Source of the DNA: Psammoneis japonica
Lineage: Eukaryota
NCBI GenBank assembly: GCA_008632985.1
Contig: QPGO01000111.1
Coordinates: 238,036-258,035, forward strand
Length of the DNA stretch: 20,000 nucleotides
Direction: 5' to 3'
The translations under genes and the position numbers were made by a program. Each line of letters begins with the position of its first letter. The stretch's first letter is position 1. Below, piece by piece: positions 1 through 17,072 of this stretch. The notes under the pieces were generated by a model that was given only the letters and a program-made list of their open reading frames with translations, had not been told where the DNA came from and made no database searches.

Positions 1-23
1 AGGTTTCTGAAATCTCCTTTTGA

Positions 24-393
24 CCCTTCAACCACCAGGGGAGCAAATCTCCGCGGGTGGAGATTTGCTCCACTTGAGGATTTGTGACATGTCATGCACT
101 TTTGCGACAATGCAATGAACATGGCACAAAAATGTCATGTCAAGTGCAACCTGTGCAAAGCATGCCATGTGCACTCACTTGTTGGGAGAAGTGTGGTGTC
201 ATTGCTCCATTTGTGACAGCAATTCATGACAACCTTCATTGTCAAAGGTTGAGAGATTCAGCTCCTCTCCATTCACAGATGAAGCTTGCAAAAAAACCTT
301 TGTCAAAAGTTGACATTGAACTTTCTAAATTGCAAAAAGGGCCCCCCCAGATTTTTGGCCGTGGAGATTTTCTCAAGTCCAGTGGTTGAAGGG
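24..393. mobile_element. Non-autonomous TIR element (MITE), probably piggyBac-type
   Basis: Perfect inverted termini CCCTTCAACCAC (24-35) / GTGGTTGAAGGG (382-393), extending imperfectly inward (GAGcAAATCTCCgCGG vs the reverse complement of 359-374). Flanks are TTGA (20-23) and TCAA (394-397), each one transition from the piggyBac TTAA target duplication. CCC termini are typical of piggyBac. Confidence 0.55.
40..71. repeat. Perfect 13-bp inverted repeat (subterminal hairpin)
   Basis: GGAGCAAATCTCC (40-52), 6-nt loop, GGAGATTTGCTCC (59-71). Confidence 0.9.
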
Positions 394-614
394 TCAAGTC
401 TGTGGTTGTTTTGCTGAACACAACAAGAAGATGCACCAAATGAACTGTGGCGGTTCCAATGGCATCATTTGCATTGTCATAAAGTGGAAATTTGATGCTG
501 CTGTGGGTGCCGCCATCTTTGCTCTCCCTTGTGTTTGTCATGCGTGTTGGCACAAGAACATTGGCAAGCATGGATCTCCAAACTGTGACTTCACTTTCAA
601 CATTCCAGTGCATG

Positions 615-766
615 GTTTCAACACTTTTTGTTGAAACTGTTGGTTTCAACAGAATGAAAACTGTTGAAGCCGCGCTTGCTTCAACAAAACATTTTCAGCT
701 TCAACAGAATTTTGTTGAGGCTGTGCAGCTTCAACAGATTTTTTGTTGAAGCCGTCAGTTTCAACA
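615..766. repeat. Array of short TTCAACA/TGTTGA motifs in alternating orientation
   Basis: About 6 TTCAACA and 4 TGTTGA copies form small inverted repeats, e.g. GTTTCAACA 615-623 / TGTTGAAAC 629-637. The arrangement resembles transposon subterminal repeats. Confidence 0.7.
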
Positions 767-2641
767 ATTCTTTGACGTCTGTTGAGATTGTTTGACTCAG
801 GCATTTGTGCCAATGTAAGTTGACATCATGTGAGGCAATGCACAGCACCACAACGGCTGTGTGTCTGCCATTTTTTGACTGGAAATGTCTTTTTTACGCA
901 AACCAGTTTCACACAGTCTGGCAATGCACTTTCAACAGATTTGAGGTGAATTTTAGGGGAGGGAACAAAAACGAGCAGATTGCGGCAATTCCGGAACTAT
1001 TTGGTTTAGGCGGATGTGCTTTCTAGCACTTTTGATTCTGTCACGCGCTGTTGTCGATCCACTGCCGGAAGCACAGAACATCAATGCACTCAGTTGCTCA
1101 GTCTAAAATGATGCAACACCATGCATTTGGAGCTCGCTGCTGTTGCTGTTGCACACGGTTGCACCACAGATTGATCTTCTTTGCTGCTGAGCTGGCGCTG
1201 ATGTCCTCAGATGCAAGCTCGTCATCTCCCAGATTCTCGTGATCATCCTGCTGCTTTGTCGCTCATGTGCCAACAAGCATTTCATGAGAAAAAGTGAAAC
1301 CCTGAAATGTGAGTTACAAAGATGACAGTGCACAAAACTGAGCTGAGAGAAGATGAGCGGGTGATCGCATGAACAACAAGATGCAATCGCACAGGTCTCA
1401 CAACGAAAACACACACACCGGATGCGCGGCATCAAAAAAGAAAGATGTGTTGTCAATGTGGCAATGAAAAGATGCTGCATCAATGTGGCAATGAATGAAG
1501 CAGCTGTTGAAGAGACAGCAGACATGAGGGTTGGTTGGGTGTGTCATCTGAACAAAAAGATGTTGCCAGCAGCTCACCGGTTGTGTTTCGTCAGAAAAAA
1601 ATCAGGCGGCATGTGCTGCATGGCAACAAAAAGATGCTGCAGCTGCAGAGAAGCTGCAGCAGCTGTTGTTGATGAACTGCACTCCAAACTGTTGAAGCAG
1701 CAGCATTTGGCAGGTGATGTGTGGTGTCTCACAGTGCTGCAACATCTGCGGTGCACGTGGTGTGTCAAATCGCGCAGGGGTGCACGGGAAACTCCCAACG
1801 CACAATTTTTTCTTCTCATGTGTCTCAAGCACATGCACAAAGCAGCGTCATTCGTGGCTTTTCCCAGGGATTTCATGCTTCCGACAAAAATTGCAGCAAA
1901 AGGTGGCAATCCCGGGAAACTTTGGGGAATCCCTCGCAGCAAAACCAAACTGAAGGTCGCGTGCGATGCGCCACGCTGGCACACACGACTCATGACTCAC
2001 GACTCGGTCGGCTGACACATTGAACTGTGGCTCCTGTGTTGTGTGCATCCCTTCCATCAAGAGTGTTGATGATGATGTTTGAGCATTGTTGGCATTGGAG
2101 GTGTTCAAAAAAATCAAAGTGTGTGTGAAAAAGCTCCCCACACCTCTCAAACAAAATCCTGCCCATGACAACTCTCAAAGTTCTTCCCACAGCCAACACA
2201 CAACTGCACTGGAAATGGGAGGATGTCTGGCACATGGTCTGATGATGATTGCACAAGGACAAAAATGGGGAAGTCTGCAGTTGACCTTGAACGTCGGAGA
2301 GGGAGATTTGTCGTGTGGGCACAATGAAACTGTGAGCCAGCCTGTCTGTAAAGTCGTTGATGAGGCCGGCTGTCCAGCAGTTCCTCCCAGCCAGATGGAA
2401 GAAGAAGAGAAAAGGAAAAGGAAGGAAAAAATAAACATCAACGAAGGTTTGAAAGGGTGCGCTGCAGTGCCGCAGTGTGCACAGCAGTGAAGACGGACGT
2501 AGACAGGTGCAGACGCGCTGCGTGGAATTTGGTGCGAAGTGTCACACATTTATGTGCGCAGAAGGATGTGGATCACCAACGGCTGGAATGAAGCAGCACA
2601 CCACACAGCAGTGAGTGCAGCTCTGTCATCACGGCGCTAGA

Positions 2642-4101
2642 ATGGCAGAGGACAACATCGTTGCGTCTGGCAAAGCAGAGGATGCAGCAGCTCCGGAAGT
2701 CATGGCAGAACTCACGGGCACCGAAGGCGCGGCGGCAGCTGCCATGACTGCACTTGGCGCCGAGGGAAGTGCCGAGGGTGTGTCCGTCAAGTCCGAACGC
2801 GCAAGGATGTCGGAGAAGCCGGCGCAGTCCCAAACTGAAAAGAGTGAGAAAGCCATGCCGCCGGAGCCAACCTTTCAAATTTGTGGTTGGAATGAAGCAC
2901 AGCAGCTGGGTTGCACCGCCAAGCAGCTCCTTGAGGCCGGTTGCAAGATCGAGTTGGTGGGTGATCAGGCCACCTTTGTGAAACCGGAGGTCCTGCCTTT
3001 TTGCAGCGGCAAAAGCGAGGAGGCAGCCAAGCCTGCGGCCAAAGTGGTCGCGAAAGCAACGGCAGAAGAGGAAGAAGAAGGAAAGCAATTTCCGGGCCCC
3101 AACGATCCGTCATTCGACTTGTGGGACTGGGTGTTGCGGCACGAAAAATCCGATAAATTCCAGGAGTCCATGTGCCTGATGAAGGATGCGCCGAACAATC
3201 CCGACCTCTGGTTCCCCGTGCTGGGAGAACTGGGGTGCATCAGGAGCGACCCTGAAGCCATCGCGAATGCTCACGGCGAACACTGCAAGTGGGTGTGGAG
3301 GTGCCGCACGGAAGTCGGCGAGAGGGGCATCCCAGACTCGACGCCGAAGAGCAACAAAGTGTTCAAGACCGCCGTCGAGGCTTTCGAAGCGGGGTGGTCG
3401 CTCGCACTGGTCTGTCTCGTGAAGAGAGCAAGCACAGAAGTGTGCACATTTGGATGAGGCGCCGTGTCACTCAACCTGCATTGTTTTGCCTCGAAAAGTC
3501 CGTTCGCTCTGCAGGCCTCAAGGAGGTGGAGTTGGGCGAGCTGCGCGCATCGCAACGGAGGGGCGCAGGCATTGGTTTTTTTGCTTTGCGCCAGTTCCAG
3601 AAAGGCAGTGCGGTTGGAATCTACGTGGGCCCCAGGGTGCCCGGTGCGACGAGGAGCTGCTCGTGGTGCGACCACAACAGCAAGTTTGGAGAAGACCACA
3701 GCGTGTGCTGCTCCACCATCCATGACAGCGAGGGCTGCCACGTCACAGTGGAGCCAAAACCGCTTGATTTTAGCGGTCCAGGGAACAAGAATTCCCATCC
3801 ACTCCACCTCGGAATGCACTGCGTGAACGATGCCACCGAGTCATTCAAGGACAAGAAGAAGATCAAGGCAAGCCAACACGCGGACAACAACTGCGAGTTC
3901 TACAACGATGGGTGCTTGGCAGTCACGAAGCGAATCATGCCCGGGGAGGAATTTCTCTGCAGATGCAACTTGGACGAATCGGAGAAGAAGAAGAAGAAGA
4001 GGAAGGCGACGTCGGGTGCCATGAATCGGAAGAAGAAATCGTGTCTACTCCCCAAGTCGGGGGGGAGAAGCTCCACGTCTGGCAAAACGTTTGCCGTGTA
4101 G
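2642..4101 (+). pseudogene. SET-domain (lysine methyltransferase-like) protein gene with one frameshift
   Basis: The C-terminal frame has SET motifs GAGIGFFALRQFQKGSAVGIYVG, GMHCVNDA and NNCEF..GCLAVTKRIMPGEEFLCRCN (GEELxxxY with Y->C), followed by a basic NLS-like tail. The upstream Ala/Glu-rich frame (ATG 2642) joins it if one G is added to the G-run at 3391-3394. Confidence 0.7.
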
Positions 4102-4211
4102 TGTGCTCTGTAAATTGGCAGCACAGTGTGTTGGTGTTTTTCAGCGAAACTGCAGCATCAGTTGGAAAGGCGCAGCCGCAGTTGTGGTTCGAAAAATGGG
4201 AACAAGGAAGA

Positions 4212-4313
4212 ACAGAAAGTCGGTAAATTTGCACAAATCTGGTGAATTGGCAGGCACCTGCATGGTCGCCTGAGCACAGAAAGTCAGCAAATTTACGCAA
4301 ATTTAGCAAGTTA
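4212..4313. repeat. 38-bp imperfect direct repeat (two copies, 64 bp apart)
   Basis: 4212-4249 and 4276-4313 align without gaps, with 10 differences that are all transitions. Confidence 0.8.
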
Positions 4314-4323
4314 TTTTGTGCTG

Positions 4324-5757
4324 TCACAGTCGCCTGAGAATGGTCTCTTCCTCTAGAGAAAGGGGGATTGAATTGTTGTTCTTGCCCACTGCAGCACTCT
4401 TCAGGTAGAGAGACACACAGAAGAACTCGTCGTTTGAGTTTGTCCTGCTGGAGATGCAGTGGTGCTTGGTGGGGTTAAAAATGATGACATCACCAAGCCG
4501 GAGTGCAACGGAGATGCCTTCGGCAGGGAAGCAGAAGTGCGCCACAATCCCGTCATTCATGGTGCAGCTGCCGGACGGAGGGACTCCCACCACGGTGACT
4601 GCTGACAGGAAGAAGTCCTGGTCCCGATGGGCGTTGAGGAAGACATTGCGCCCAGCCGCCAGAGAGGAGAAAATGCCATCTGACCACACCAGGGATTTCC
4701 AGTTGTGAAACTTTTTGACACGAGCGACACCCTGGAGGATGGCATGGTCCACGTGCTCATTGACAAGGTGCTCCATGCGTGAAAGAAGTCTGGTGAGGTG
4801 GTGAGTGTGTTGGTCGGCTGTGCCAGGCTGCTTGCAAGAAATTCGAGCGTCCCTCGTGGCAGCCAGGCCAATCGTGGAACACTTGCTCCTGTCCGTCTCC
4901 ATGAAGGCAACGCATTGTTTGCCGCGCACGGTGGACTGGGCGGTGCAGCATTCTAGTGCTTCGAGCGCTCGGCACTGAGCAACTGGTTCTGCTGGGTTGG
5001 GGGAGCTGAACACCACAGCAGAACGCGGCAGCAGGGTGCAGGTGTTGTCGCAGCGGCAACCGTCCAAGCCAAAGAAAGGCTTCAGATTGAGCACAGGGTC
5101 ACAGACGACCAGAGGAGCCAATTCGGCAAAGTCAATGTCAGCAAGACAAGGTGGTGCAGGCTGAGTGTAGTCGCCGTTATAAACTAGAGTGCGGTCAGCT
5201 ACGCAGTGCACGGAGAGACTCTTAGTGGTGCACGGTGCGAGTGGAACGAGGCGAGTGATCTTGGATGTTTTCCTGCTGGCGCGGCTGCGGATTCGCCTGC
5301 GGCTGCGGCGGGCCTTACGAAGTGGTGGTTGAGCCCTCAACACGTTCTCACACATCCTGGTGCACATTGACGATGCGGTGTTCGCAGAGAACGTGTGTGC
5401 AAACTTGCCGGTAAATGTTCCGCTGCTTGACACTGTCACTGTCGTCTCAACAGTGCCCAAAGCAGAACTCTGTCGACAGGGACCGGCGGACTCCAGGGGA
5501 GTGGGGTCAAAACCCAATCGAGAGATGTGTCTGCTTTCCATTGCCTCAAGAGCACCCAAAGCAAAACTCTGTTGACAGGGACTGGCAGACTCCAGGGGAG
5601 TGGTGTCGAAACCCAATCGCGAGAAGCATTTGCTTGTTGTCGGGCTGCGAGCTGCACGTCCCAAACCCCCACACTGTCGAGACCGGCTGTAACTCGATCG
5701 CGACAAGTGCTTGTCGTTGGTGGGACGACGCAGCGAGGCACGAGGCAGTTGCGACAT
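4324..5757 (-). CDS. 2OG-Fe(II) dioxygenase-domain protein, TET/JBP-like (C-terminal domain)
   Basis: FSSLAAGRNVFLNA-HRD-QD (HxD at 4621-4629), HFCFP..GISVALRLGDVIIFNPTKHH (distal His near 4459-4464) and a terminal CVSLY strand match the double-stranded beta-helix layout of TET/JBP-type enzymes. The N-terminus is low-complexity and basic. The start is uncertain (ATG 5757; the ORF is open to 5793). Confidence 0.65.
   Translation of the reverse strand: MSQLPRASLRRPTNDKHLSRSSYSRSRQCGGLGRAARSPTTSKCFSRLGFDTTPLESASPCQQSFALGALEAMESRHISRLGFDPTPLESAGPCRQSSALGTVETTVTVSSSGTFTGKFAHTFSANTASSMCTRMCENVLRAQPPLRKARRSRRRIRSRASRKTSKITRLVPLAPCTTKSLSVHCVADRTLVYNGDYTQPAPPCLADIDFAELAPLVVCDPVLNLKPFFGLDGCRCDNTCTLLPRSAVVFSSPNPAEPVAQCRALEALECCTAQSTVRGKQCVAFMETDRSKCSTIGLAATRDARISCKQPGTADQHTHHLTRLLSRMEHLVNEHVDHAILQGVARVKKFHNWKSLVWSDGIFSSLAAGRNVFLNAHRDQDFFLSAVTVVGVPPSGSCTMNDGIVAHFCFPAEGISVALRLGDVIIFNPTKHHCISSRTNSNDEFFCVSLYLKSAAVGKNNNSIPLSLEEETILRRL
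5456..5627. repeat. In-frame tandem duplication (99-bp period) within the dioxygenase N-terminus
   Basis: Copies start at 5456 and 5555 and encode SRLGFDTTPLESASPCQQSFALG / SRLGFDPTPLESAGPCRQSSALG. Confidence 0.85.
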
Positions 5758-6123
5758 GGTGTGTCTCAATTTGAAATGTGTTTCAAAACACAACGACGGA
5801 AGTGTTGTCGCGTTGTTTTTGTCTCCGCGGAGGGAGGATCATCCCATGGCAATCTCAGTGCGAGTTCTCGCGTAGAAGTGCGTCACGTGCCGTGCCAGCT
5901 CGTGCGTTTGAATTGCACGGACACACAAGCACGGCAACGATGAGAAGCAGGCCGAGATTCAAAACAAATTTTACCACCCAAAGGCGTCTCATCATTTCAA
6001 CGCATCTGCATGTCTGTTTGAAATGACTTCATGCGTCGCTCCATGCGCAGGTAGAGGCAGCACGCCGCGTTTGAAAATTTTGCGCGCGCAGAGGGCGTGA
6101 CGGCAATTTTACGCATTCTGCGC

Positions 6124-6939
6124 ATGTCACAGTTTGGTTTGGAAATGCGACATCTGGTCAAACCCGCTGCAAGCAAGGTTGATGTTGCCACAAGGTTGGA
6201 TGCGATGAACCATCGTCACAGAAGTGTTGGGGAGTTTTATCTTCAAACGGCTCCGGACTCCGCGTTCCAGAGCAGGCGTGTCTCCGGAGACGGAAGCGGA
6301 TCTTCGCACGGCGGCGAAGTTGGCTTCGCTTTGAGCAGCGAAGTGTTTTTGAACGAACGCCTTCTTGGCATGAATCACACCTGCGACACATCTGTCGACA
6401 TGGGCGGGGGAGTTGCCGGACCCAGCATCGGGCTCAAGTTACTTCGTCGCCGTTGCACCATGGTGAGCATCGAGGCCGACCACGATCATCACCAAGAGGC
6501 TGTACGTTGGGCTCATCGTGCTGGCCTTTGCTCGAACGGCGGGTCAGAGTTGATCAGCAAGTCATTCTTGGACGAGAGGCTGGCTCCTTTGTGGAAAAAG
6601 AAAGGACTCAAGGTGTTCTTCAACAACTGCAACTCCCGCATGGTCGACGACAAGAACACACAGCAGAAGGCAGAGGCGATGCTTTTGAAGTTGTGTCGTG
6701 CTGGGACCGTGGTGGTGGCGCTAGATCCGCTGTTCACGTCGTGCGCGGGAGAGTGGATGTGCGAGTCCTTCACAGCGGATTGCCATGATGGCGACTTTTT
6801 GTGGCACAGCGGAGACGTGAAACATCTCGTCTTCCACAAGTGCACCAAGAAAGAGGAGACTTCTCAGTCAACCAGCCAGCACATGCGACGTCCCACTCCG
6901 ACACACTTGGAACGGAAGCATTTGCCCGTCGCGAAATAG
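6124..6939 (+). CDS. Class I SAM-dependent methyltransferase, DOT1-like
   Basis: Ordered motifs match DOT1-type enzymes: (H)GGE ~ YGE; SVDMGGGVAG ~ FVDLGSGVG; VSIE ~ GVE; VFFNN ~ IFVNN; AGTVVVALDPL ~ GxRIVSxxP. The start is uncertain (6097 GTG, 6124 ATG or a later ATG). Confidence 0.55.
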   Translation: MSQFGLEMRHLVKPAASKVDVATRLDAMNHRHRSVGEFYLQTAPDSAFQSRRVSGDGSGSSHGGEVGFALSSEVFLNERLLGMNHTCDTSVDMGGGVAGPSIGLKLLRRRCTMVSIEADHDHHQEAVRWAHRAGLCSNGGSELISKSFLDERLAPLWKKKGLKVFFNNCNSRMVDDKNTQQKAEAMLLKLCRAGTVVVALDPLFTSCAGEWMCESFTADCHDGDFLWHSGDVKHLVFHKCTKKEETSQSTSQHMRRPTPTHLERKHLPVAK

Positions 6940-7161
6940 CCAATTTTGCTTAAGAACTCAACTGAACTGTTTTTTTGCTGTCACTGTGCTGGACGTCACA
7001 TGCCAGTTGCTCCACTCAATTCGCCATTGCTTTGCGGTAACGTAAAGTTGTCGTCGGAGATGGCACACACTTGAAGAGACAGAGGAAAGCTGAGTTGCAA
7101 TCGACACTTAGTTTGCTGAACATTTACAAATTTACACTGCACCGGCAAAAAAAAAAACAAC

Positions 7162-8034
7162 TCAGTCTTCGTCGCTGTCCTGAAGCACCAAGTCGTCATC
7201 GACGTTCAGGTCAACTTCGCAGTTGAGCTCGACATCATCGTCGGCATCTTCTCCAGCTTCTTCTGCCGGAGCTCCAATGAGACGACAGAGTTCCATGGGC
7301 AACGACCCCTCGTAGAAGTGACTGTGAAGTGAGTTCTTGTTTTGGGCGTGCCAACCGATGTGAAACTGACCACCTTCCTTCTGAAGCTCGGTGAGCGCCG
7401 CCTCATTGCCGATCACTTCGGACCAAACAGCATCCTTCATCCAGAAGAAGTCGTCTTCAACGAAGACCTCGGTGTTGTTCTCAGGGTCATCGTTCAGCTG
7501 CTTCGCAATGCACTTCCCGAGGCCGCGCACTTTAGCATCAGTTGGGACTTCTTCGAGGAAGATGAAGAAGAGACGCACGGCGCAGTTCTTGGCGTTCGTC
7601 TGCAACTTGCCCTCGTGAACCCACCTGCCAGCGCAAGGGTGGAATCCGACTTGAACCGCCCACGGAGTCCTGCTGCGAAGGTCATCAAACAGAACCTTCT
7701 CCGACCAAACATTGGTTGGAAGGGGATTCTTGGCTTGGAGACGAAAAACGACGCCTTTCTTGCGGCCGACAGTGACGGTGGCGCAGCGCAGGAGGGCGTC
7801 CTTGTCGGAATGGCTGCCATCGTCAGAACCGGCAGATTTGGAAAGCTTGAACCCGTGCTTGGCAAGGCAGTCTTCCGGTTTAAGGTCGTCGTCGGTCAAG
7901 CCGTTGGTCTTGCGGGGCGGACTTAGTTTCTTCAACAGAGCATCAGAAAACTTCGTCTTTGCCTTCTTCTGTTTGGTTTCGGCGACTTTGGCTTTCGCAG
8001 CCGGGGAGGTCGTTGTGTTTCTTTTGCGTGCCAT
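7162..8034 (-). CDS. Hypothetical protein (~290 aa) with basic N-terminus and acidic C-terminus
   Basis: Protein-like ORF from MARKRNTTTSP (ATG 8034), with a Lys-rich NLS-like start, a globular-looking middle and a D/E-rich tail. No family recognised. Confidence 0.6.
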   Translation of the reverse strand: MARKRNTTTSPAAKAKVAETKQKKAKTKFSDALLKKLSPPRKTNGLTDDDLKPEDCLAKHGFKLSKSAGSDDGSHSDKDALLRCATVTVGRKKGVVFRLQAKNPLPTNVWSEKVLFDDLRSRTPWAVQVGFHPCAGRWVHEGKLQTNAKNCAVRLFFIFLEEVPTDAKVRGLGKCIAKQLNDDPENNTEVFVEDDFFWMKDAVWSEVIGNEAALTELQKEGGQFHIGWHAQNKNSLHSHFYEGSLPMELCRLIGAPAEEAGEDADDDVELNCEVDLNVDDDLVLQDSDED

Positions 8035-8583
8035 CGAATCAGTCGGAGAGAATTTGTGGGAACAAAAAGTGCGATCGTTCAGAAGTGCCAAGAAAGACCC
8101 AGCAGAGCTGCGCACATCACACCAAGGAGAACTGGCAACGTCAGCAACCAGATTCAAACACGTCGAACTGCAACAAGGCAACCTTCCAGGTGTCAGCACT
8201 TGCAAGTGGTGCATGGGTTCAATTTGAACAAAACAGACACAAGGATCGGAGCACGCAAAGTCACACTAAGTTTGCTGAAAATGCGCAAAATCACGTGCAA
8301 TTCCGTCCATGCTTCGTGTGTGTTTCAGCCGTTGCTGCTGCGTGGCCATCGCGCACGAAATCTAGTCGCCAAACGGTTGACGCCATCGCTGTCACTGCAT
8401 GCTGCACCGGCAGTTAGCCAAGGTGGGCCCATCACCCATTTGGAGGATTCGCACGCACTTTGGAAACACGAATGACGTCAATCGCACTGTCATTGCCACA
8501 CGACTAACTCAACTGCCCCGCCACTCGTTAAAGCGTGATTCTACGGAATTTACGCAAAGCTGCGCCCACCACCAAGATTGCCG

Positions 8584-8676
8584 AAACAACTTGAACAAGA
8601 TCCGAATCTTGCCCCATGGAATGTTCAGAGCAGATGGTCAAAACAACTTGAACAAGATCCAAGTCTCATCCCATGG
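8584..8676 (+). repeat. 57-bp-period direct repeat
   Basis: AAACAACTTGAACAAGATCC at 8584 and 8641, and CCATGG at 8614 and 8671. It reads KQLEQDPxLxPW twice. Confidence 0.85.
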
Positions 8677-8839
8677 GATTTCAACGTTGACGAAACTAAG
8701 TGGGATGTTGCACGTCTGGTGCGAAGAAGGACGTGGGAGGAACGCACACGTCACTCTTCCGTCGAGGTGAAAGAGGCACACTTTCGTCACACTTTTTTGT
8801 GACAGAACCTTTGCGCAAAGGGAAACGAAAAGCATCCAA

Positions 8840-9519
8840 CTGCGGTGATTGGGCCACACCGATCGCAGTTCTCAGTTCTCACAGTGACCTGGCAACGCAG
8901 GTTGTGAGACAACGCACAAGCTCAGCTGCGGTGACTGGACGACACCAGTCGCAGCTCTCACAGAGACCTGATCGCACAGGTTGTGAGAACATGACACAAC
9001 GCTGCGGTGATCGGATGGCACCGACGCAGTTCGTCAAGCAACTAATTCACTTGGCTGCGGTGACTGGATGACACCAGTTGCAGCTCTCACAGCGACCTGA
9101 TTGCACAGGTTGTGAGCAAACAACACAGCGCTGCACCTCGTAATGTAGGTTGTGAGACAACGCACAAGCTCAGCTGCGGTGACTGGACGACACCAGTCGC
9201 AGCTCTCACAGAGACCTGATCGCACAGGTTGTGAGAACACGACACAACACTGCGGTGATCGGGTGGCACCGACGCAGTTCGTCAAGCAACTGATTGACTC
9301 GGCTGCGGTGACTGGACAGCACCAGTCGCAGCACTCACAGCAACCTGATTGCACAGGTTGTGAGAAGACGACACAGCGCCACGGTGAACGGGTGGCACCG
9401 ACGCGGTTCGTTGATCAACTGGACAGAACCACTGCGGTGACTGGACGACACCAGTCGCAGTGCTGCAGGTGGCGAGAAAACACACATCGCTGTGGTGATT
9501 GGACAGCACCGATCGCAGC
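8840..9519. repeat. Tandem array of imperfect hairpin units upstream of RepHel
   Basis: Ten CTGCGGTGA...CGCAG-type units at about 8840, 8926, 9002, 9055, 9174, 9250, 9303, 9379, 9432 and 9490, mostly alternating 76/53-bp spacing. There is a higher-order 248-bp duplication (8899 vs 9147) and a second hairpin, CTCACA..ACCTG/CAGGT TGTGAG. Confidence 0.9.
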
Positions 9520-9587
9520 TTCACGGTGATTGCACTGAAAAAACAACCATTTTTGCTGAGCAACTTCTTGAAATTTGTTGAGTTGAA

Positions 9588-12500
9588 GTGTCAGCTTCAA
9601 TTAAAATGGACGAGGCCAACTCCCGTGTTTGTGGTGCAATCAATGGAAAGTTTGAGATGCTTTGTCTACATGGAGATGGAGAATTTAGACCACACGCATG
9701 TTTGGTCTGTGACGTTCTGCTGAAACCTGGAGAAGTTTGCTGCTTGCCGCTCGAAACATTGGAATCAGCAAGAAACTTGCTCACCCCTTCAGACTGGAAC
9801 ACCGTGTCTGATCATCTCAAGTCCTGCTGCACTGTAGAGCATGAAGATGCTGATTGGATCAAAGACCTGCTGCTTTCTCCTCGCGCCCAACACGCTGTGC
9901 AGGAAGACAGACGACGCGTTGACGGATTCACTTGCTGCAGCGAATGCCGAAGAAGCCTGGGAAGAGCCGTCATGCCAATGCACGCGACAGCGAACAACTG
10001 CTGTTTCGGCACCCCGCCGCACGAACTGTTGTCTCTAACTGAAGCAGAGTTGGCAATGCTCACACCAGTGAAAACATGCGGGTGCTGCTTCAGTCACCTT
10101 GGCGGCAAACAGAAGAAGCTTCAGGGAAGTCTGACATGCTACAAAGTCAAGATGCAAAGCATCGTAAGAACTGTTGTGCACTTCGACGTGCTGAATTTAC
10201 ATCAGGGTGTGATTGCACTGATGACTGGAAAGATGACTCCGGAGCAAAGACAACTTGCACGTTCAAAGAACAGGATTGGGACGCACTGCATGCTGAGGGT
10301 GATGGAATGGCTGTTGCACCACAACCAAGAGTGGGTGCACCAACAGACAAATCTAGACGAAGTCAGGCGCAATCTGCGGAATCCCGCACTTGTCGACAGC
10401 ACCGGCGAAGAAGAAGGAGAAAATGCGAATGTTGAGACCTCAGAGTCATTTCACATTTGCTTTCCTGATGGAACCATGTCTCCTGCGACCGGTGGTCAGC
10501 GCAACCTGGACTGCTTCAAAGATCTTGCACACGAAGCTGCTGCCAACGGATTTGATTTAGAGGTGCAAGCACAGTTGTCCAAAGAATCTGCGAGTGATTT
10601 CAAAGGCAACAACTTCATTGACGCGTGTCTGCTGCAGTTTCCTTTTGGCAGAGGAGGAATCAATGAGACGAGAGTGAAGAAAGACGGAAGTCTTGCAGAC
10701 AGCACCAACCTTGCACACTGTGCCGACCACCCAGCACGGATTTCCCAGCCTCACTTCCACGAGCAGCTCTTCGTGTTAATGTGCCACAACTTGACAATGA
10801 AGCAAAGGATGCTGCAGAGCGCAGGGTGGAAAGTCAGGGACAAGAATCAGGCTGCACAGTTTGCAAACGAACCAACAGTGGACGATGTGGACAGAGCTGT
10901 TTGTGATCGCAACTTGGGCGAGAGAAGAGATTGTGGACTCGGGCACCACTTTTTGCGTGCACTCGACGTTGCATCTGCGTCTCTGCCACACAGTGATGAA
11001 GCAGCAAAGAAAATGAGGAGAAACGCTGAAACTTGTCAGCATCATTTTGGTCAGGGTGGCATTTTCTTAACTGTCAGTCCGGACGATGCAAATTCGTTTC
11101 TTGTGCAACTGCACTCGGGTGTCATCCTGGACCCAAACGAAGACGTGACACAACTGACGGACGAAATTCTTGCTGGCAGGGCTGGGCAACGTAACGAACT
11201 GCGTCTAAAGTTTCCCGGTCTAACAGCCTTTGCATTCGAGTGCTTGTTTGACATTGCAGTGGAAGAGGCAGTGGGTTGGGATCTGAGTGCCAACCAACCA
11301 AGAGAAAACTTTAACTTCTACATTGGCAGGCCAGCCGCATTTTTAGCCGCAGTTGAGGAGCAGGGACGTCCAACAGTGCATGGACACATGCAGATCTGGC
11401 TCACATCGATCAACAATGCAAGAGAGAAGCTGCATTCGCCAACAAGACAGATCCGACGCGAAGGTGCTGAGTGCCTCACCAACATGGTTCAGAAGATCTG
11501 CAGCACGGAATTGATCTGTGGCGAGGACTTCAGCACTAACGCGTTGCGTGAAGCATTCGATCATGACTGCACAGTGCCAAAAATGTGTCGCACCTCTCCA
11601 AAAGCAGCAGACGACCAACAGCTAAGAAACCTGAGGCACAAAGACGGCCAGCAGTCGAAGAACGGAATGTTTGCTTGTTGTCGTCACTGCACCAAGTGCT
11701 GGACAAACGTCGAGTTTGTAGAAAGCTTTTTACAGTCACGGCACCGTGCACCTGGCCTGACTCGCCATCCAGACAACCATGCAAAGCGACTAAAAGCAAT
11801 GTGTGTGCAACACCAGCAAAGTGGTCCGCAAGGGACAATGGAGGCCCATGTGCCGGATGCAGCTTACAACCATCACATGCACGTTACGAAGTCGTGTTTT
11901 CCCAAATGCGCAGAGTTGCGTAAAATGTGTAAAAAAACCCCACACGAGGAACTGGACGTGCTGTCAAGGAAACGGAAACGAGAGGAGCTCAAACTGGGTG
12001 ACTGCCATCACAGGCAACCAGCTGCTTCGTGTCCAAATAATTTGGCAAGGAACGCAGATGACACTCAGATAAAGTGGTTCAGCTGGGATGGAACTTTTGT
12101 GTGTCGGCACGTGAAGGAAGTTGTTCTGAAGAGGAGAAAGTGCGATGCTTTTCAAAACGTGTCGTGCCCTGCAATTGGCAGATCAAAACTGACATGCAAC
12201 ACAAACATTGCTTTGTTGATGCCTGGACCGTCTGCTCAACACACGATTGAGCACATCCTAAAAGATGCCCAGAAAGATGACACTGCATCGTACGACGAAG
12301 TGCTTCGAACTACAAACAGGACAGCAATGGAATTACGGAAACACGCATCTGATGCATCGGAAGCAATCAGACGTCTCATGTGGGGTGCTCACTCGCGTGA
12401 CAAGACGAACGTCATTGGACCACCACTTGCGTCTTACATGACAAGGAACAGAAGCCGTTTCATCGAATCTCATTTGACCGCATGGTGCCCCTTGAAAGAC

Positions 12501-13517
12501 ATTGTCAGCACACTAGAAAGAGACGAAGTGTCTGTGACTGTAGCCCATTTTGGCGATGCACCGTTCTTCCAATGCCAGGCCTTGCACTGCCCATGTCGTC
12601 CAACAGCACTGGAGAATCTCAGTCCATTTGCGTTTTTTAGTGAGTGCGAAGTTCTTCGCAACACAAGGAAAAACGAACACGGCATGATGATGTTCGACAA
12701 CAGAGCGCACAGGCACCCGTCTTGCAATTCAACGAAGAACAAGTTTCTTCAAGGTGTCAGACAGCGACAGCAACCGCGATTGTTAAAAGTGCTTCAGTGT
12801 GATTTTCCTGATGCAGCCAAGTTTGGCAGTTGCCTTGTAAATCCGCAGCAACCAACAACACCAGACAAAGAATTGCACTGCAAGTTGGCATTGGCCTTGT
12901 TTGTGCCTTGCAGAACAATGACGGAACTCAAACCAACAACCCATGCATGCCTGCATGAATTCCAACTCTCCGCAGTGGCCGGTGTCATTGCAGAGGAAAA
13001 CTTGAACTTCTTGCAGAACCTGCAGGATGCTGAGTCCAACTGCCTTCGTCTCAAAAGTGCATCTGACGTTCTGCAAAGAAAGACGGAGCAATTTAGACCT
13101 GCTGACGTTGCGCTTGACTGTTGCGAAAGTGACGAGGAAGAAAGTCTTTCAGGCGCCGTTCAGGGTCAACTGCTGGATGCACTCTTGGAAGAAATGGCAG
13201 AGCAGCCAGAAGACGATGACATTAGGTTGAGCGACCAAGCAGTCATTCCTGCGCATTTGAGTGGCAAACGTGCAAGACAGAAAGGTTCACACATGGGTGG
13301 CTGCAAATGCTTGGCAGACATGCACACTGACCCACCAAACGAGGAAAGCCAGGTCAATGAACGACAACTTTTTGAGAATCTAGAGGGCAGCGATGACACT
13401 GACAAGGAAGACCAGAATGAAGGAGTGCAACAACACATCCACAGCAGACCACTGTCAAGAGACGACATTGTTCGAGTGATGCTGACTAGAACGCAAAGAA
13501 CAAGAAGGTCGTTTTGA
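9588..13517 (+). pseudogene. Helitron RepHel, Rep (HUH rolling-circle endonuclease) portion
   Basis: Contains a DUF6570-like segment (ATANNCCFGTPPHELLSLTEAELAML), QFPFGRGG, motif 1 FLTVSPDD, motif 2 VEEQGRPTVHGHMQIW (HUH at 11379-11387), CNTNI and motif 3 HTIEHILK (YxxxYxxK with both Y->H, 12240-12254). The true start may lie upstream of the in-frame TGA at 9579. Confidence 0.9.
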
Positions 13518-13521
13518 GGAC

Positions 13522-15338
13522 ATGACAGGTTTGGAAGAACACGTCGATGTGCGTCAAGCAAACGGATCTGCAGCAAGCATCGTAGACTGGGCCAGGAAAG
13601 CAAGACTGGATGGGCAACAGCAGCGTGCCTTTGAAATTCTAGCAGGAACCTTTGTGCTCACTTGCTGTCAAGATGCTCTTCAAGATGAGACGTCACGCAA
13701 TGGACTTAACAGGAGAAACAGCAGACACGAATTCGCAACAAACCTTCGCCGATTGAAGAAACTCGTGGAAGTGCAAAGACGTAGAATGTTGCAACTTGTG
13801 TGTTTTTTACATGGTGCAGGTGGAAGTGGCAAATCAACCACAATGGACCTCGTCGTGGAGTGCGGAAGAGAGCATTTGCTCGCTTGTTGAGCAGCCGTTC
13901 ACAACAAGCACAATCAGAGTGGCTGCACTGACCGGAGTGGCTGCCGCTGTTCTCAAAGGGGACACAATCCACCGAGTTGCATGCCTCATGAGAAGAAAGC
14001 AAATGACCGAAGAGCAAATTGAAGCATGGTCAGACATGAGACTTTTGGTGGCACATGAGATTTCTTTTGCAAGCAAGAGAGAACTGGAAAAACTCCATGA
14101 GAATTTGACAGTGTTGAAGAGCGAATTAAGCAAGCCGCACGGTGGCATGAACATTGTTTTCGCAGGTGACCTCAGGCAACTAGAACCAGTCGGAAAAGGA
14201 GTGAAACCACCATGCAAAGATGTGTGTCCCGAGTTTCACGAGTGGATCAACTGCCACACAGAACTTCGTGGTGTGCACAGGTTTAAAGACGATCCATCAT
14301 GGGGAAAACTGCTCAAGAGATTCCGCACTGGCAAGATTGCAGTTGACGACATAGAGCACATCAACGAACGAGCAGCTCAGAACGAAGATGATCTGCCCAG
14401 TGACCTCCGCCATGCTGCATGCGCAAATAAGGACAGAGATGCAATTGACACTGGCCCATTCGAAAAAAGAGTGAAAACACTGCATGGAAGAGATGGAGAC
14501 GTCCTTGACTCAATGTTGATTTTCAGTGACGACTTGCAGGCACAGAATGGCACGAGACTCTGCCAACCATTTCCGGTTTGCAACAGCTTCTGGAACAACT
14601 GTGGTGAAGGAGACGTTGTCATGCAATCAGGAAGAATGGATCCAGTCTTACAAATTTACAGAAGATGCAGAGTCATGACACCTTTCAACGAAAATGCAGC
14701 AAACAGTCAAGCAAACGGAACGCAAGCCACTGTTGACAAGGTCGTTCTCAACCAGGACAGGAACAAGACTGGTGACTTTAGACAACAACATTGGCATTCC
14801 TGCTGTGCTTGCTAGCCAGGTAGACCACATTGCATTGGAACACTGCAACAAAAGCATCGACCCCGCGAAGTTTTTAGTTGAGCCAAAAACAAATGCTTTC
14901 AGGGCTTGCATCACCAAGCCCAGCCCAATTTTAGAAGAAGGCGACAAACAAAGGCACACTTTCCAACTGAAGGCAACCCAGCTGCCGTTTGTCATCAACA
15001 ATGCCACTGCAGGGCACAAACTGCAAGGGAGTGGAGTCCCGCAGTTGTTTGTACACTCTTGGAGCTACACTCAGAATTGGGCGCATGTTGTGCTCTCCAA
15101 AGCAAAGACCAGAGAAGGGCTGTTCATGCGAAAGCCACTGAGCAAGGACCTGCAAAAATGCAAGGTCCCAGAAGGCTACGAAGCCTTGATGAGACTCATG
15201 AAGGAGAGAAGCGCCACGCATTTTTCTCAGCAACAGCACGCAGAAACACCAATGTGGTGCGCAAACACCAGATTAGGATGCTCAACCACTGTGCAACTGT
15301 TTGGCGACCCCAACCGTAAAAATGCGGAAATTTCGTAA
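13522..15338 (+). pseudogene. Helitron RepHel, PIF1-family (SF1B) helicase portion, frameshifted
   Basis: Motifs: Walker A HGAGGSGKS; ALTGVAA..LKGDTIH; degenerate Walker B LLVAHEISF; HGGMNIVFAGDLRQLEPV; LRGVHRFKDD; TQLPF..NNATAGHKLQG; HVVLSKAKTREGL. They are spread over three frames, with shifts near 13513 (junction to Rep), 13876 and 14750-14765. Confidence 0.9.
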
Positions 15339-15472
15339 AACAAAATGTTTCGATTGGATCAGCACATTGCGTGGAAATCCACACATGCATCACACAACGT
15401 CGAATGGATTTTAACCAACAAACCAAGAAACGCGAACGCAACCGTCACAGAAAATGCAGCAATGGAGAAAAC

Positions 15473-15874
15473 ATGGATTTGCAACAACAAACAAAGAAGG
15501 CAGACGAGCCAAAGAAAACTGGTGAGGACAAGAAAAAGGTGCAGACACGTGCGGAACTTCTTCAGTCATTGATGAATGAGGAAGACGAAGAGGAGATTAC
15601 CTTGGAAGAAGCAAGAGCGGCGTTTGACCTTGCTTCGGGAAATTTTGATGTCACTTCTGCACTTGTGCAAGACAACACGACAGTGGACAGTCATCATGTG
15701 GAAACAACGGTCGCGCCCAAGGATGATTCAACCATGGAGGAGCTAAAGGCAGCATGTGCAGCGGCGATTCCACAGCGGTCGGGGAGATTTTTCACCGAGG
15801 AGGAGATGGCGGAGCAGGAGAAGGAGCAAGCAAAGTCCCTTCAGAAGAAGTGTGGCCAGAAAGAATGGAATTGA
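15473..15874 (+). CDS. Small acidic protein with a possible UBA-like helical motif
   Basis: ORF from ATG 15473. The segment ITLEEARAAFDLASGNFDVTSALV resembles UBA/CUE-like helices 2-3. Confidence 0.35.
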   Translation: MDLQQQTKKADEPKKTGEDKKKVQTRAELLQSLMNEEDEEEITLEEARAAFDLASGNFDVTSALVQDNTTVDSHHVETTVAPKDDSTMEELKAACAAAIPQRSGRFFTEEEMAEQEKEQAKSLQKKCGQKEWN

Positions 15875-16183
15875 GCAAATTGCAAATGACCATTTGGCAA
15901 AGACAACCACATCAATGCACAAAATGCATGCACATGGACTTTCACTTGAGCCGCCGCGGATTGAGCATGGCCACAAATGAGGACTGACTGTTTGGCAAAG
16001 AAACTGCAACAATGCGCAAATTTCGCACATTTCCACACTCACTTAATCCAACGCAGCTTGCCTTGGACAACATCAACATGCACAACTAGACAACATCAAC
16101 ACACACCAGACAGCCTCATGAAACCTCACAGAAGACAGAATGGTCAGAAGCAAAACAACCAGCACCACGCTCTAACGCATGTT

Positions 16184-16227
16184 GGTCATGTCGCGTGGGT
16201 CGCGCAAAAGTGCGCACCGAAATGACC
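16184..16227 (+). other. GC-rich hairpin, candidate Helitron 3' terminator structure
   Basis: GGT(C)GCGCA-AAAG-TGCGCACC (16198-16218), enclosed by GGTCAT (16184-16189) / ATGACC (16222-16227). It lies about 20 nt before the end of the TpA-depleted domain. No clear CTRR follows. Confidence 0.4.
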
Positions 16228-16496
16228 GTCATGTGTTGTAATTAATTCGAACGCCCGGCGCAAAATGCAGCAAAATGATTGGTGCAGGCAATCGTCATGG
16301 CTCTATTTTCTGACAGTAGCGAGGGCGGCAATCCAAAATCTTTCGGTTTCAGACTTCGATCTAGAGAGTTCCACCTAAAAAGAGGAGGAACCAATTTGTT
16401 TCCCGCCATATCACGCGCAAGTGGATGATGATTCGCGCGGAGCCTCACATCTCTCCACCCTCGCTCAGCCGCGCAAAGCCAGAAAATCAAACAACC

Positions 16497-17072
16497 ATGG
16501 CCACTTGCGTTTGTAGTTTGAGCGGCGAGACGGGTTCTTCCGTATCAGGGGTGTTGAAACTTGTACAGTCAAGTGAAGATGCACCCACCACCATTGAAGG
16601 CGAGCTTCGAGGCTTGACACCGGGAAAGCACGGCATTACAGTCAATGTGTACGGCGACCTTTCTCAAGGCGCTACTACATGCGGAGAGATTTTCAACCCA
16701 TTTGGTGAGAATTATATTGCGGTCTGTGCGAATCGTGCTTGTCTTCATCATTGTGTCGTAGCTTATGATCCTTTTGTGTTTTGTTTCTGAACAGGCAAAT
16801 CACACGGATCACCACAAGACGATCCGAGCAATCGCATGGTGGGTGATTTGGGAAACATTGACGCTGGATCGGATGGAAAGTGTGCCGTGTCGTTGTCGGA
16901 TTCACTCGTGAAATTGTTGGGGCCCCATTCCGTCATTGGAAGGTCGATTGTCGTGTATACTTCTGCGGATGATGGTGGACGTGGCGGCCAACCGTCGTCA
17001 CTTACAACCGGCAACACTGGAACACGAGTAGCTGCCGGTGTGATTGGAATTGCCGCAGCTGCGGCGCCATGA
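16497..17072 (+). CDS. Cu/Zn superoxide dismutase-fold protein lacking metal ligands (161 aa; exons 16497-16704 and 16795-17072)
   Basis: Start context ACAACCATGG. A 90-nt GT..AG intron at 16705-16794 restores FNPFGKSHG. The protein is colinear with SOD1: GLTPGKHG, GDLS, FNP, VGDLGNI, LLGPHSVIGRSIVV, DDGGRGG, TTGNTGTRVAAGVIG. Confidence 0.92.

Follow-up and report, generated by a model that had tools for sequence, protein, structure and literature searches.

What removes the dinucleotide TpA from 16 kb of mobile DNA and leaves the adjoining gene with its TpA in place? The question is raised by a 20,000-nucleotide (nt) stretch of contig QPGO01000111.1 (positions 238,036 to 258,035 of the forward strand), here called the window. 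Its first 16240 positions appear to be mobile-element DNA, mostly one large, dead Helitron of a repeated family together with a low-copy segment, and the remainder carries a host gene for a Cu/Zn superoxide dismutase (SOD). An earlier note on this DNA had read the composition of the block as an inverse form of repeat-induced point mutation (RIP), that is, a genome defense that converts TpA to TpG or CpA in repeats. We favor a related reading, to which we assign a probability of about 0.75: silenced or foreign DNA is edited in place by a host process that turns A:T into G:C at TpA, acts repeatedly, and is of the same kind as one recently described in the alga Bigelowiella natans. Such a host-level process would change A:T to G:C only at TpA and on either strand (TA>TG or TA>CA), would have hit the block again and again, almost to saturation, and would run alongside ordinary CpG decay. 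Chemically, an ADAT/TadA-like enzyme may deaminate adenine in DNA to inosine, and the host presumably directs the process to silenced or foreign DNA, where the editing would serve as a defense.

TpA depletion of the block and its border

The manual counts in the earlier note proved exact (2 TpA in positions 1-600 and 31 in 19381-19980), and TpA is nearly absent across the whole block, as claimed there. Positions 1-16240 contain 142 TpA, against a mean of 954 in 200 mononucleotide shuffles (standard deviation 22, minimum 893), and the observed/expected ratio (O/E) of TpA is 0.15 in the block and 0.60 in the part beside the SOD gene. Per 500-nt bin this ratio lies between 0.00 and 0.36 over positions 1-16000 and between 0.43 and 0.79 over 16501-20000; as a frequency, TpA stands at 0.0087 in the block versus 0.042 in the host part (Fisher p 3e-38). 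Of the trinucleotides ATA and TAT, only 9 and 5 copies, respectively, are left in the block (O/E 0.03 and 0.02). The O/E values of TG and CA are 1.54 and 1.49 in the block and 1.15 and 1.17 in the host part, that of CpG is 0.78 versus 1.00, and G+C is about 0.51 versus about 0.47. Both strands are affected alike, counts of TG versus CA being homogeneous along the block (chi-squared per degree of freedom 1.06 in 400-nt bins). Long runs edited on one strand were considered as an arrangement of the changes and ruled out, since no heterogeneity of TG versus CA emerged at scales of 200, 400, or 800 nt (p 0.25-0.37). The return to normal composition beside the host gene was likewise borne out: the density of TpA changes level at about 16175-16240, some 250 nt before the SOD start codon is reached, and the jump in O/E from 0.15 to 0.60 spans about 100 nt. 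Beyond this border, positions 16241-20000 have a host-like composition, with a TpA O/E of 0.6 and a CpG O/E of 1.0.

About 570 TpA are expected in the block, and about 430 of them are gone. Together with 234 missing CG these amount to 664 lost dinucleotides, to be compared with an excess of 718 (372 TG and 346 CA), and losses and gains match within about 8%. By this mass balance, roughly two-thirds of the TG/CA excess derives from TpA and one-third from CpG decay, so that the proposed origin of the excess in TpA holds for its larger part and ordinary CpG decay accounts for the rest. The two decays are uncoupled along the element: at 6001-8000 the CpG O/E is 1.03-1.05 while the TpA O/E is 0.15-0.16, and CA+TG reaches only 1.13-1.36 there. 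One group of six surviving TpA was noticed within 56 nt (5168-5223), inside an otherwise depleted, G+C-rich stretch. Because TAA and TAG are rare and TGA is the sole common stop codon, many long open reading frames (ORFs) are found; 59 of at least 100 amino acids (aa) are spread over all six frames. A change at TpA cannot create a stop codon (TAA becomes TGA or CAA, and TAG becomes TGG or CAG), and wrecked genes therefore remain long open frames.

Contigs from two sequencing runs, X1 and X2, were aligned to the window to compare its segments; the summed X1 depths given below are not copy numbers. The 4460 X1 contigs on the window pile up on positions 1-311 and about 2390-16400. The first of these regions is a repeated, TpA-depleted edge segment with a summed X1 depth of 3267 in the bin 1-667. 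The second consists largely of the Helitron body (2390-16240, + strand; TpA O/E 0.05-0.36), in which the summed depth per bin is 1840-5197 versus 48-64 in the host part, indicating that the Helitron is repeated many times. Between them lies a low-copy segment (312-2389; summed depth 117-269 in bins 668-2001) with a TpA O/E of 0.00-0.11. Two X1 contigs of 1353 and 753 letters (depth 36.9 and 30.2) match this segment with 0 differences, the first of them spanning 312-1664, and this agreement over 2.1 kb of depleted sequence argues that the depletion is not a product of the assembler, with X1 possibly being the source of the window itself. The description of the depletion as repeat-restricted was not supported, as the low-copy segment is depleted to the same degree as the repeats and a repeated stretch at 16240-16400 has a normal, host-like density of TpA (6 between 16239 and 16376; X1 depth 7089 at 16377). 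The latter may be the (protected) end of the element or another, younger repeat; the X1 contig of the unique host part begins at 16427.

Direction, context, and timing of the changes

The Rep/helicase (RepHel) gene of the Helitron was used to follow the changes at the level of codons. Its frame (9639-15245, + strand) encodes DUF6570, Helitron_like_N (Pfam E 5e-9), and PIF1-like helicase (E 7e-12) domains. According to tblastn with P0001, P0002, and P0008, it is collinear with homologs of 1866-2012 aa in four pieces (frames 3, 1, 2, and 3) and contains no in-frame stop codon, the pieces being offset by three +1 frameshifts at about 13513, 13875, and 14750-14770. In other X1 copies, one-base deletions or two one-base insertions at 13512, 13875, and 14749/14763 would restore the frame, and the frameshifts are thus private to this copy or assembly errors. 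Conserved tyrosine positions were defined as columns with Tyr in at least 70% of 19 Helitron homologs (n = 24). The replacement of Tyr by Cys or His at such positions, which had been proposed from the sequence, was recovered in 17 of the 24 columns (10 Cys, encoded by TGC, and 7 His, encoded by CAC or CAT), with 2 further columns occupied by Phe and 5 Tyr kept, all of them as TAC. Other conserved residues were retained in 392 of 473 columns (Fisher p 2e-10 versus Tyr). The overall content of the window ORF is 0.4% Tyr, 4.7% Cys, and 4.8% His, whereas the 19 homologs contain 2.9-4.0% Tyr, and a leave-one-out analysis of these normal-Tyr homologs gave 0-3 Tyr>Cys and 0-2 Tyr>His for each. The base preceding the mutated Tyr codon did not predict Cys versus His in the 17 cases.

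Among the lost residues is the catalytic Tyr pair of the Rep nuclease (12240-12254, + strand; family consensus GQYxFKY), both members of which are His in the window (CAC; codons 12240 and 12252). The catalytic YxxxY motif accordingly reads HxxxH, while the HxH motif is intact. Catalytic Tyr residues are essential in HUH nucleases, and a copy without them cannot move itself; with both lost, this Helitron copy is dead. With regard to its assignment to the Helitrons, the HUH nuclease domain and the PIF1-like helicase are present and the catalytic Tyr pair is not intact. A homolog search for other copies with a 110-aa query around the catalytic site returned 1 match, with 51% identity.

Where a substitution requires A>G at codon position 1, the preceding base is T in 14 of 18 cases (baseline 22%, p 7e-7), and all 13 substitutions that require T>C at codon position 2 precede A (baseline 27%, p 4e-8), as in GCA from GTA, ACA from ATA, and CCA from CTA. 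The closest relative found, P0186 (312 aa, 74% identity, normal Tyr), differs from the window at 80 amino acids. Reversal of TA>TG/CA accounts for 19 of these differences and reversal of A>G outside a T context for 5, while 3 revert by CpG decay and 11 by G>A outside CpG. Expressed per available base, the first two categories become 19/175 at TpA and 5/297 outside a T context (p 3e-5). Tabulating the substitutions by dinucleotide context, as the earlier note had suggested, hence upheld its view that the conversion of A:T to G:C is specific to TpA. In 21 metagenome loci of relatives the TpA O/E is 0.37-0.77, and at the conserved-Tyr positions each of these relatives has 0-1 Cys and 0 His, with most Tyr retained. 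Judged by these comparisons, the depletion is a product of mutation and not native composition.

The loss of TpA also depends on the neighboring base. Survival relative to the host part is 0.04-0.06 for TAT/ATA, 0.20-0.23 for TAC/GTA, 0.31-0.32 for TAG/CTA, and 0.35-0.46 for TAA/TTA, which corresponds to the order T > C > G >= A for the 3' neighbor. This order reads most simply as a preference for T-A-pyrimidine (T-A-Y) on the strand that would have been edited. TGC/GCA and TGT/ACA are among the TG/CA trinucleotides most enriched relative to the host part, as expected from T-A-Y editing; CAG/CTG alone reaches a similar enrichment ratio, which fits CpG decay.

Change after the divergence of copies was traced by comparing the window with other copies in X1. 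Among the best-supported 40 of 665 listed differences, classed by context by eye, 6 are single TA<>TG/CA differences (the window lost TA in 4 and kept it in 2), 8 rows represent 4 TG<>CA doubles, 14 are CpG-type, and 12 are other changes. Since TpA makes up only 0.9% of the dinucleotides in the block, TpA sites are heavily over-represented among the copy differences. A tandem array upstream of RepHel (8887-9518; units of 248 and 129 nt) provides an internal clock for change after duplication. Its units at 8887-9131 and 9135-9379 are 92% identical and show 19 differences, with all 3 TA sites and 8 of 20 CG sites differing between them. On the evidence of these alignments, the process acting on TpA went on after the copies separated.

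The same pattern recurs across the Helitron family. Tyr content is below 1.5% in 8 of the best 150 of 1504 representative homologs, the median being 3.35%. For 5 of 6 low-Tyr proteins compared, and also for P0008, Tyr>Cys/His is a leading change relative to the nearest normal relative, with P0270 and especially P0015 as weaker cases; normal-versus-normal controls (n = 3) gave 0 Cys and 0-5 His. On a tree calculated with Y, C, and H masked (100 rows, 8 of them depleted), 7 changes are needed, at least 5 of which are forced by well-supported branches. The sister of the window on the family tree, P0169, is Tyr-free. The window and P0008 share 17 mutated sites; at 7 of them one has Cys and the other His, so that the hits are independent. 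The public RepHel ORFs P0164, P0169, P0270, P0235, P0010, and P0008, of 866-2012 aa, contain 0.0-1.0% Tyr and 6.6-9.1% Cys+His. These low-Tyr entries are hypermutated ghosts that were predicted as proteins.

Other features of the Helitron and the adjoining host gene

Upstream of RepHel, an accessory ORF of 367 codons (7165-8265, - strand) is conserved in relatives, where tblastn matched it in L014, L003, L009, and L005 with 28-31% identity (E 1e-14 to 1e-37). At the positions of 20 Tyr in these relatives, the window has 0 Tyr, 4 Cys, and 4 His, and the Tyr content of the ORF is 0.3%. It belongs to a second gene of about 330-390 codons that this Helitron family carries upstream of RepHel, located also at 5112-6275 (-) in L009 and at 1130-2116 (+) in L014; neither the accessory ORF of the window nor its counterparts in relatives matched a Pfam or PHROG family. 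A tblastx search against the upstream regions of L003, L005, L009, and L014 yielded matches at 3787-3990 and 7192-7812, and this homology to the accessory regions of relatives indicates that the element spans at least from about 3790 to about 16200. The first of these matches (+ strand) corresponds to a 470-codon ORF of L009 (1378-2790, +), which itself has only a sub-threshold match to a SET domain (Pfam E 0.009). Among 54 ORFs of the block, Pfam gave credible scores for Helitron domains alone, a PHROG search with 25 block ORFs resulted in 0 matches, and self-comparison of the window detected tandem arrays and no second copy of the element. Positions 15841-16560 were read for Helitron termini (5' TC, 3' hairpin plus CTRR, A^T target), and no end could be placed with confidence. 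One X2 contig, with 35 differences, aligns within the element at 2732-3039, a hint that some copy is transcribed.

The ORFs scanned in the low-copy segment 312-2389 had no Pfam match below E 0.019 and no PHROG match at E<=0.001. This segment also contains an imperfect palindrome of 140 nt (628-767, 75% identity), overlapping a 30-nt tandem array at 695-774, which may be what the earlier note named a miniature inverted-repeat transposable element.

The host gene beside the block encodes a Cu/Zn SOD (16497-17072, + strand; Pfam Sod_Cu) in exons 16497-16703 and 16794-17072. The 90-nt intron between them (16704-16793, GT..AG) is skipped by a spliced X2 contig; run X2 is recorded as "DNA?" yet behaves like RNA in this respect. 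Homologs of the 161-aa model were sought in a collection whose entries come in part from MMETSP and EukProt. The best of them is 77.7% identical, the named matches are all ochrophytes, mostly diatoms, with 57-66% identity, and in the SOD tree the window and an unnamed MMETSP protein form a pair nested in a clade dominated by ochrophytes. B. natans is itself represented in MMETSP and EukProt, and with a best match of 77.7% the host is unlikely to be that species. This grouping suggests a host of another lineage than B. natans, probably an ochrophyte and not a chlorarachniophyte. A Pfam search with 17 host-side ORFs gave nothing usable, and a tRNA scan of the window found none. The X1 contig at 16427-18043 carries 307 extra letters on its left that lie off the window and may represent another allele, for example one without the insertion. 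Relative to the window, the X1 contigs of the host part show 14-15 letter differences and 18-52 gaps, reflecting either indel errors in the assembly of the window or a slightly different strain or haplotype.

Alternative explanations, known systems, and significance

Since TpA is its own reverse complement, adenine and thymine chemistry are inseparable from sequence: a T>C on one strand looks identical to an A>G on its complement, and all sequence results obtained here fit both. The same signature could accordingly arise if T at TpA were modified, for example to 5-hydroxymethyluracil (hmU) by a TET/JBP-type dioxygenase, and later read, or wrongly repaired, as C. The hmU of dinoflagellates is enriched at TpA and TpC, which lends this chemistry some plausibility. 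ADAT/TadA enzymes naturally edit A34 after U33, and the neighbor order in the block, which reads simplest as T-A-Y, resembles that U33-A34 context; in addition, the B. natans preprint, on homology alone, favors an ADAT2-like candidate (bioRxiv 10.64898/2026.01.13.699255). We therefore regard thymine modification as unlikely. Slightly less probable in our view is inherited composition, whereby hypermutation in an earlier master copy or host had left the element TpA-poor before it entered this genome or was amplified in it, and it is not targeted in situ now. The depletion does appear to be mostly common to the X1 copies, with about 650 variable places listed, and the tree sister P0169 is likewise Tyr-free. 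Private TA<>TG/CA differences between copies and between tandem units, the equal depletion of the adjoining low-copy segment, the disagreement with P0008 at 7 of 17 shared mutated sites, and the inability of a copy without catalytic Tyr to move itself all speak against inheritance.

GC-biased gene conversion, or a general AT>GC bias among repeated copies, would suit a block that is repeated and G+C-richer than the host part, but it is very improbable given that the changes are confined to the TpA context (19/175 versus 5/297; 14/18; 13/13) and that the low-copy segment is depleted to the same degree. We give equally little credence to selection against TpA/UpA, for instance to escape a nuclease that cuts at TA, a transposon that targets TA, or UA-specific RNases. 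The changes wreck catalytic and conserved residues, non-coding DNA and both strands are affected equally, and functional relatives retain TpA; on the other side, mild avoidance of TpA is common, and the host part itself has an O/E of 0.60. Least credible is an artifact of sequencing or assembly such as systematic miscalling at a modified motif. Indel errors are possible, as the X1 host contigs differ from the window in letters and gaps and the frameshifts coincide with indels in other copies. The depleted sequence itself, in contrast, recurs in X1 over 2.1 kb with 0 differences, the 4460 contigs on the block have a similar composition, and independent public proteins carry the same Tyr>Cys/His pattern.

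Some observations weigh against repeated editing in situ by the host, which remains our preferred reading. The TG<>CA doubles could go back to CG as readily as to TA. Over 20 kb, the variable places listed (share >=5%) number only about 650, as compared with about 430 missing TpA; with so few, much of the TpA loss is seemingly common to the copies and older than their divergence. The family has dead catalytic residues and yet is highly repeated, for which mobilization in trans or segmental amplification are guesses. The low-copy segment 312-2389 is depleted whereas the repeated stretch of about 160 nt at 16240-16400 is not, X1 is possibly the window's own sample and hence not an independent confirmation, and the assignment of the host lineage rests on a single gene, SOD.

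In the RIP of ascomycete fungi, C>T changes occur mainly at CpA, create TpA, lower G+C, and make stop codons. The block resembles the outcome of RIP in that a dinucleotide-specific transition hypermutation has wrecked mobile DNA and spared neighboring genes, but TpA is destroyed here, G+C is raised, and stop codons cannot arise; a TpA O/E of 0.15, a CpA O/E of 1.49, and a G+C content above that of the host part are the reverse of what RIP leaves behind. Deamination of 5-methylcytosine in methylated transposons, by which CpG decays to TpG/CpA, yields the same products and cannot remove TpA. It is itself present in the block (CpG O/E 0.78 versus 1.00; CG<>TG/CA copy differences) without explaining the TpA loss. 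APOBEC/AID enzymes convert C to U, read as G>A, in retroelements and viruses and thereby create stop codons; the block shares with them a deaminase-type hypermutation of mobile or foreign nucleic acid and differs in the change itself, A:T>G:C at TpA. ADAR edits double-stranded RNA, and ADAT/TadA-type enzymes edit A34 of tRNA and also fungal sexual-stage mRNA. This A-to-I editing likewise produces A>G and strongly favors a U/T immediately 5' of the edited A, but it acts on RNA, where changes are not inherited, and ADAR prefers a 3' G, unlike the order T>C>G>=A found here. ADAR-type hyperediting inherited through an RNA intermediate was also considered and rejected, as the element encodes a Helitron Rep and PIF1 helicase and Helitrons transpose as DNA.

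A full-text literature search for the signature turned up only the B. natans preprint and nothing for diatoms or Helitrons. In mutation-accumulation lines of this chlorarachniophyte alga, Mettrop et al. observed integrated viral DNA being hypermutated de novo from TpA to TpG/CpA (bioRxiv 10.64898/2026.01.13.699255). According to its main text, an integrated giant-virus region and a virophage region together received 231 of 302 new single-nucleotide mutations; 230 of the 231 mutations in these two hypermutable regions consisted of A>G or T>C changes, each of them at a TpA, and the hypermutation was seen in some lines only, at about 1e-7 to 1e-6 per site per generation. The B. natans genome is described there as containing 324 coding sequences low in TpA, among which DDE and reverse-transcriptase domains are enriched, along with 124 clusters of windows that are TpA-poor and CpA+TpG-rich. 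As the deaminase, an ADAT2-like protein is put forward there, solely on the strength of homology. The statement in the earlier note that no characterized pathway acts in this way is therefore overtaken by a de novo measurement of the same signature, for which that source proposes a candidate enzyme; with this precedent, "inverse RIP" is a real, recently described process and not a new category.

The cut-offs of the preprint were applied to 1-kb windows of positions 1-16000, with Rho_TpA computed in the usual observed/expected form, from which the preprint's own formula may differ. All 16 windows pass the TpA cut-off (Rho_TpA <=0.27), and 9 of 16 also pass the CpA+TpG cut-off. Those in 1-3000 and 12001-16000 pass both and form two clusters of at least three windows. 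As in B. natans, A:T>G:C changes occur only at TpA and on both strands, they leave a footprint of low TpA with high CpA+TpG, and they are confined to foreign or mobile DNA with normal DNA adjoining it, here within this window. The target differs, being a repeated Helitron and a low-copy segment here and DNA of nucleocytoplasmic large DNA viruses (NCLDV) and virophages there, as does the depth of depletion, with a Rho_TpA of 0.06-0.27 versus 0.45 in the NCLDV region. The events in B. natans were seen de novo, whereas here they are known from their footprint in the sequence alone; conversely, the 3'-neighbor order T>C>G>=A seen here has no counterpart that we found in the main text of the preprint.

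At the level of sequence comparison, context specificity, direction, confinement to the mobile block in this window, continuation after divergence, and the neighbor order have been demonstrated, and adenine deamination by an ADAT/TadA-like enzyme is the leading candidate chemistry. What the window adds to the B. natans case is a repeated Helitron as target, near-saturation, the order TAT>TAC>TAG/TAA, and at least 5 independent hits on one family. An evenly balanced case can be made for the wider proposition that TpA editing is a RIP-like defense of opposite polarity that exists beyond the chlorarachniophyte in at least one other marine protist lineage, probably an ochrophyte, that it has brought a repeated Helitron family and adjoining low-copy DNA there close to losing all TpA, that it has struck the Helitron family at least 5 separate times in public (meta)genomes, that its T-A-pyrimidine preference fits an ADAT/TadA-like DNA deaminase, and that it leaves stop-free ghost genes behind.

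Dead elements with ORFs of at least 1000 codons that gene finders call as proteins enter the protein databases, which is a warning to users of such entries. The same Tyr-free, Cys/His-rich transposase ORFs suggest a simple protein-level screen for other hosts and should be searchable at scale, as the 8 low-Tyr proteins among the best 150 homologs illustrate. Any candidate enzyme must reproduce the preference TAT > TAC > TAG/TAA. To judge from the literature search and the preprint's main text, a dinucleotide hypermutation that raises G+C and removes TpA was unreported before that 2026 description in one alga. An independent and far more extreme case in an apparently different lineage would make the system a broader eukaryotic defense and not the oddity of one species.

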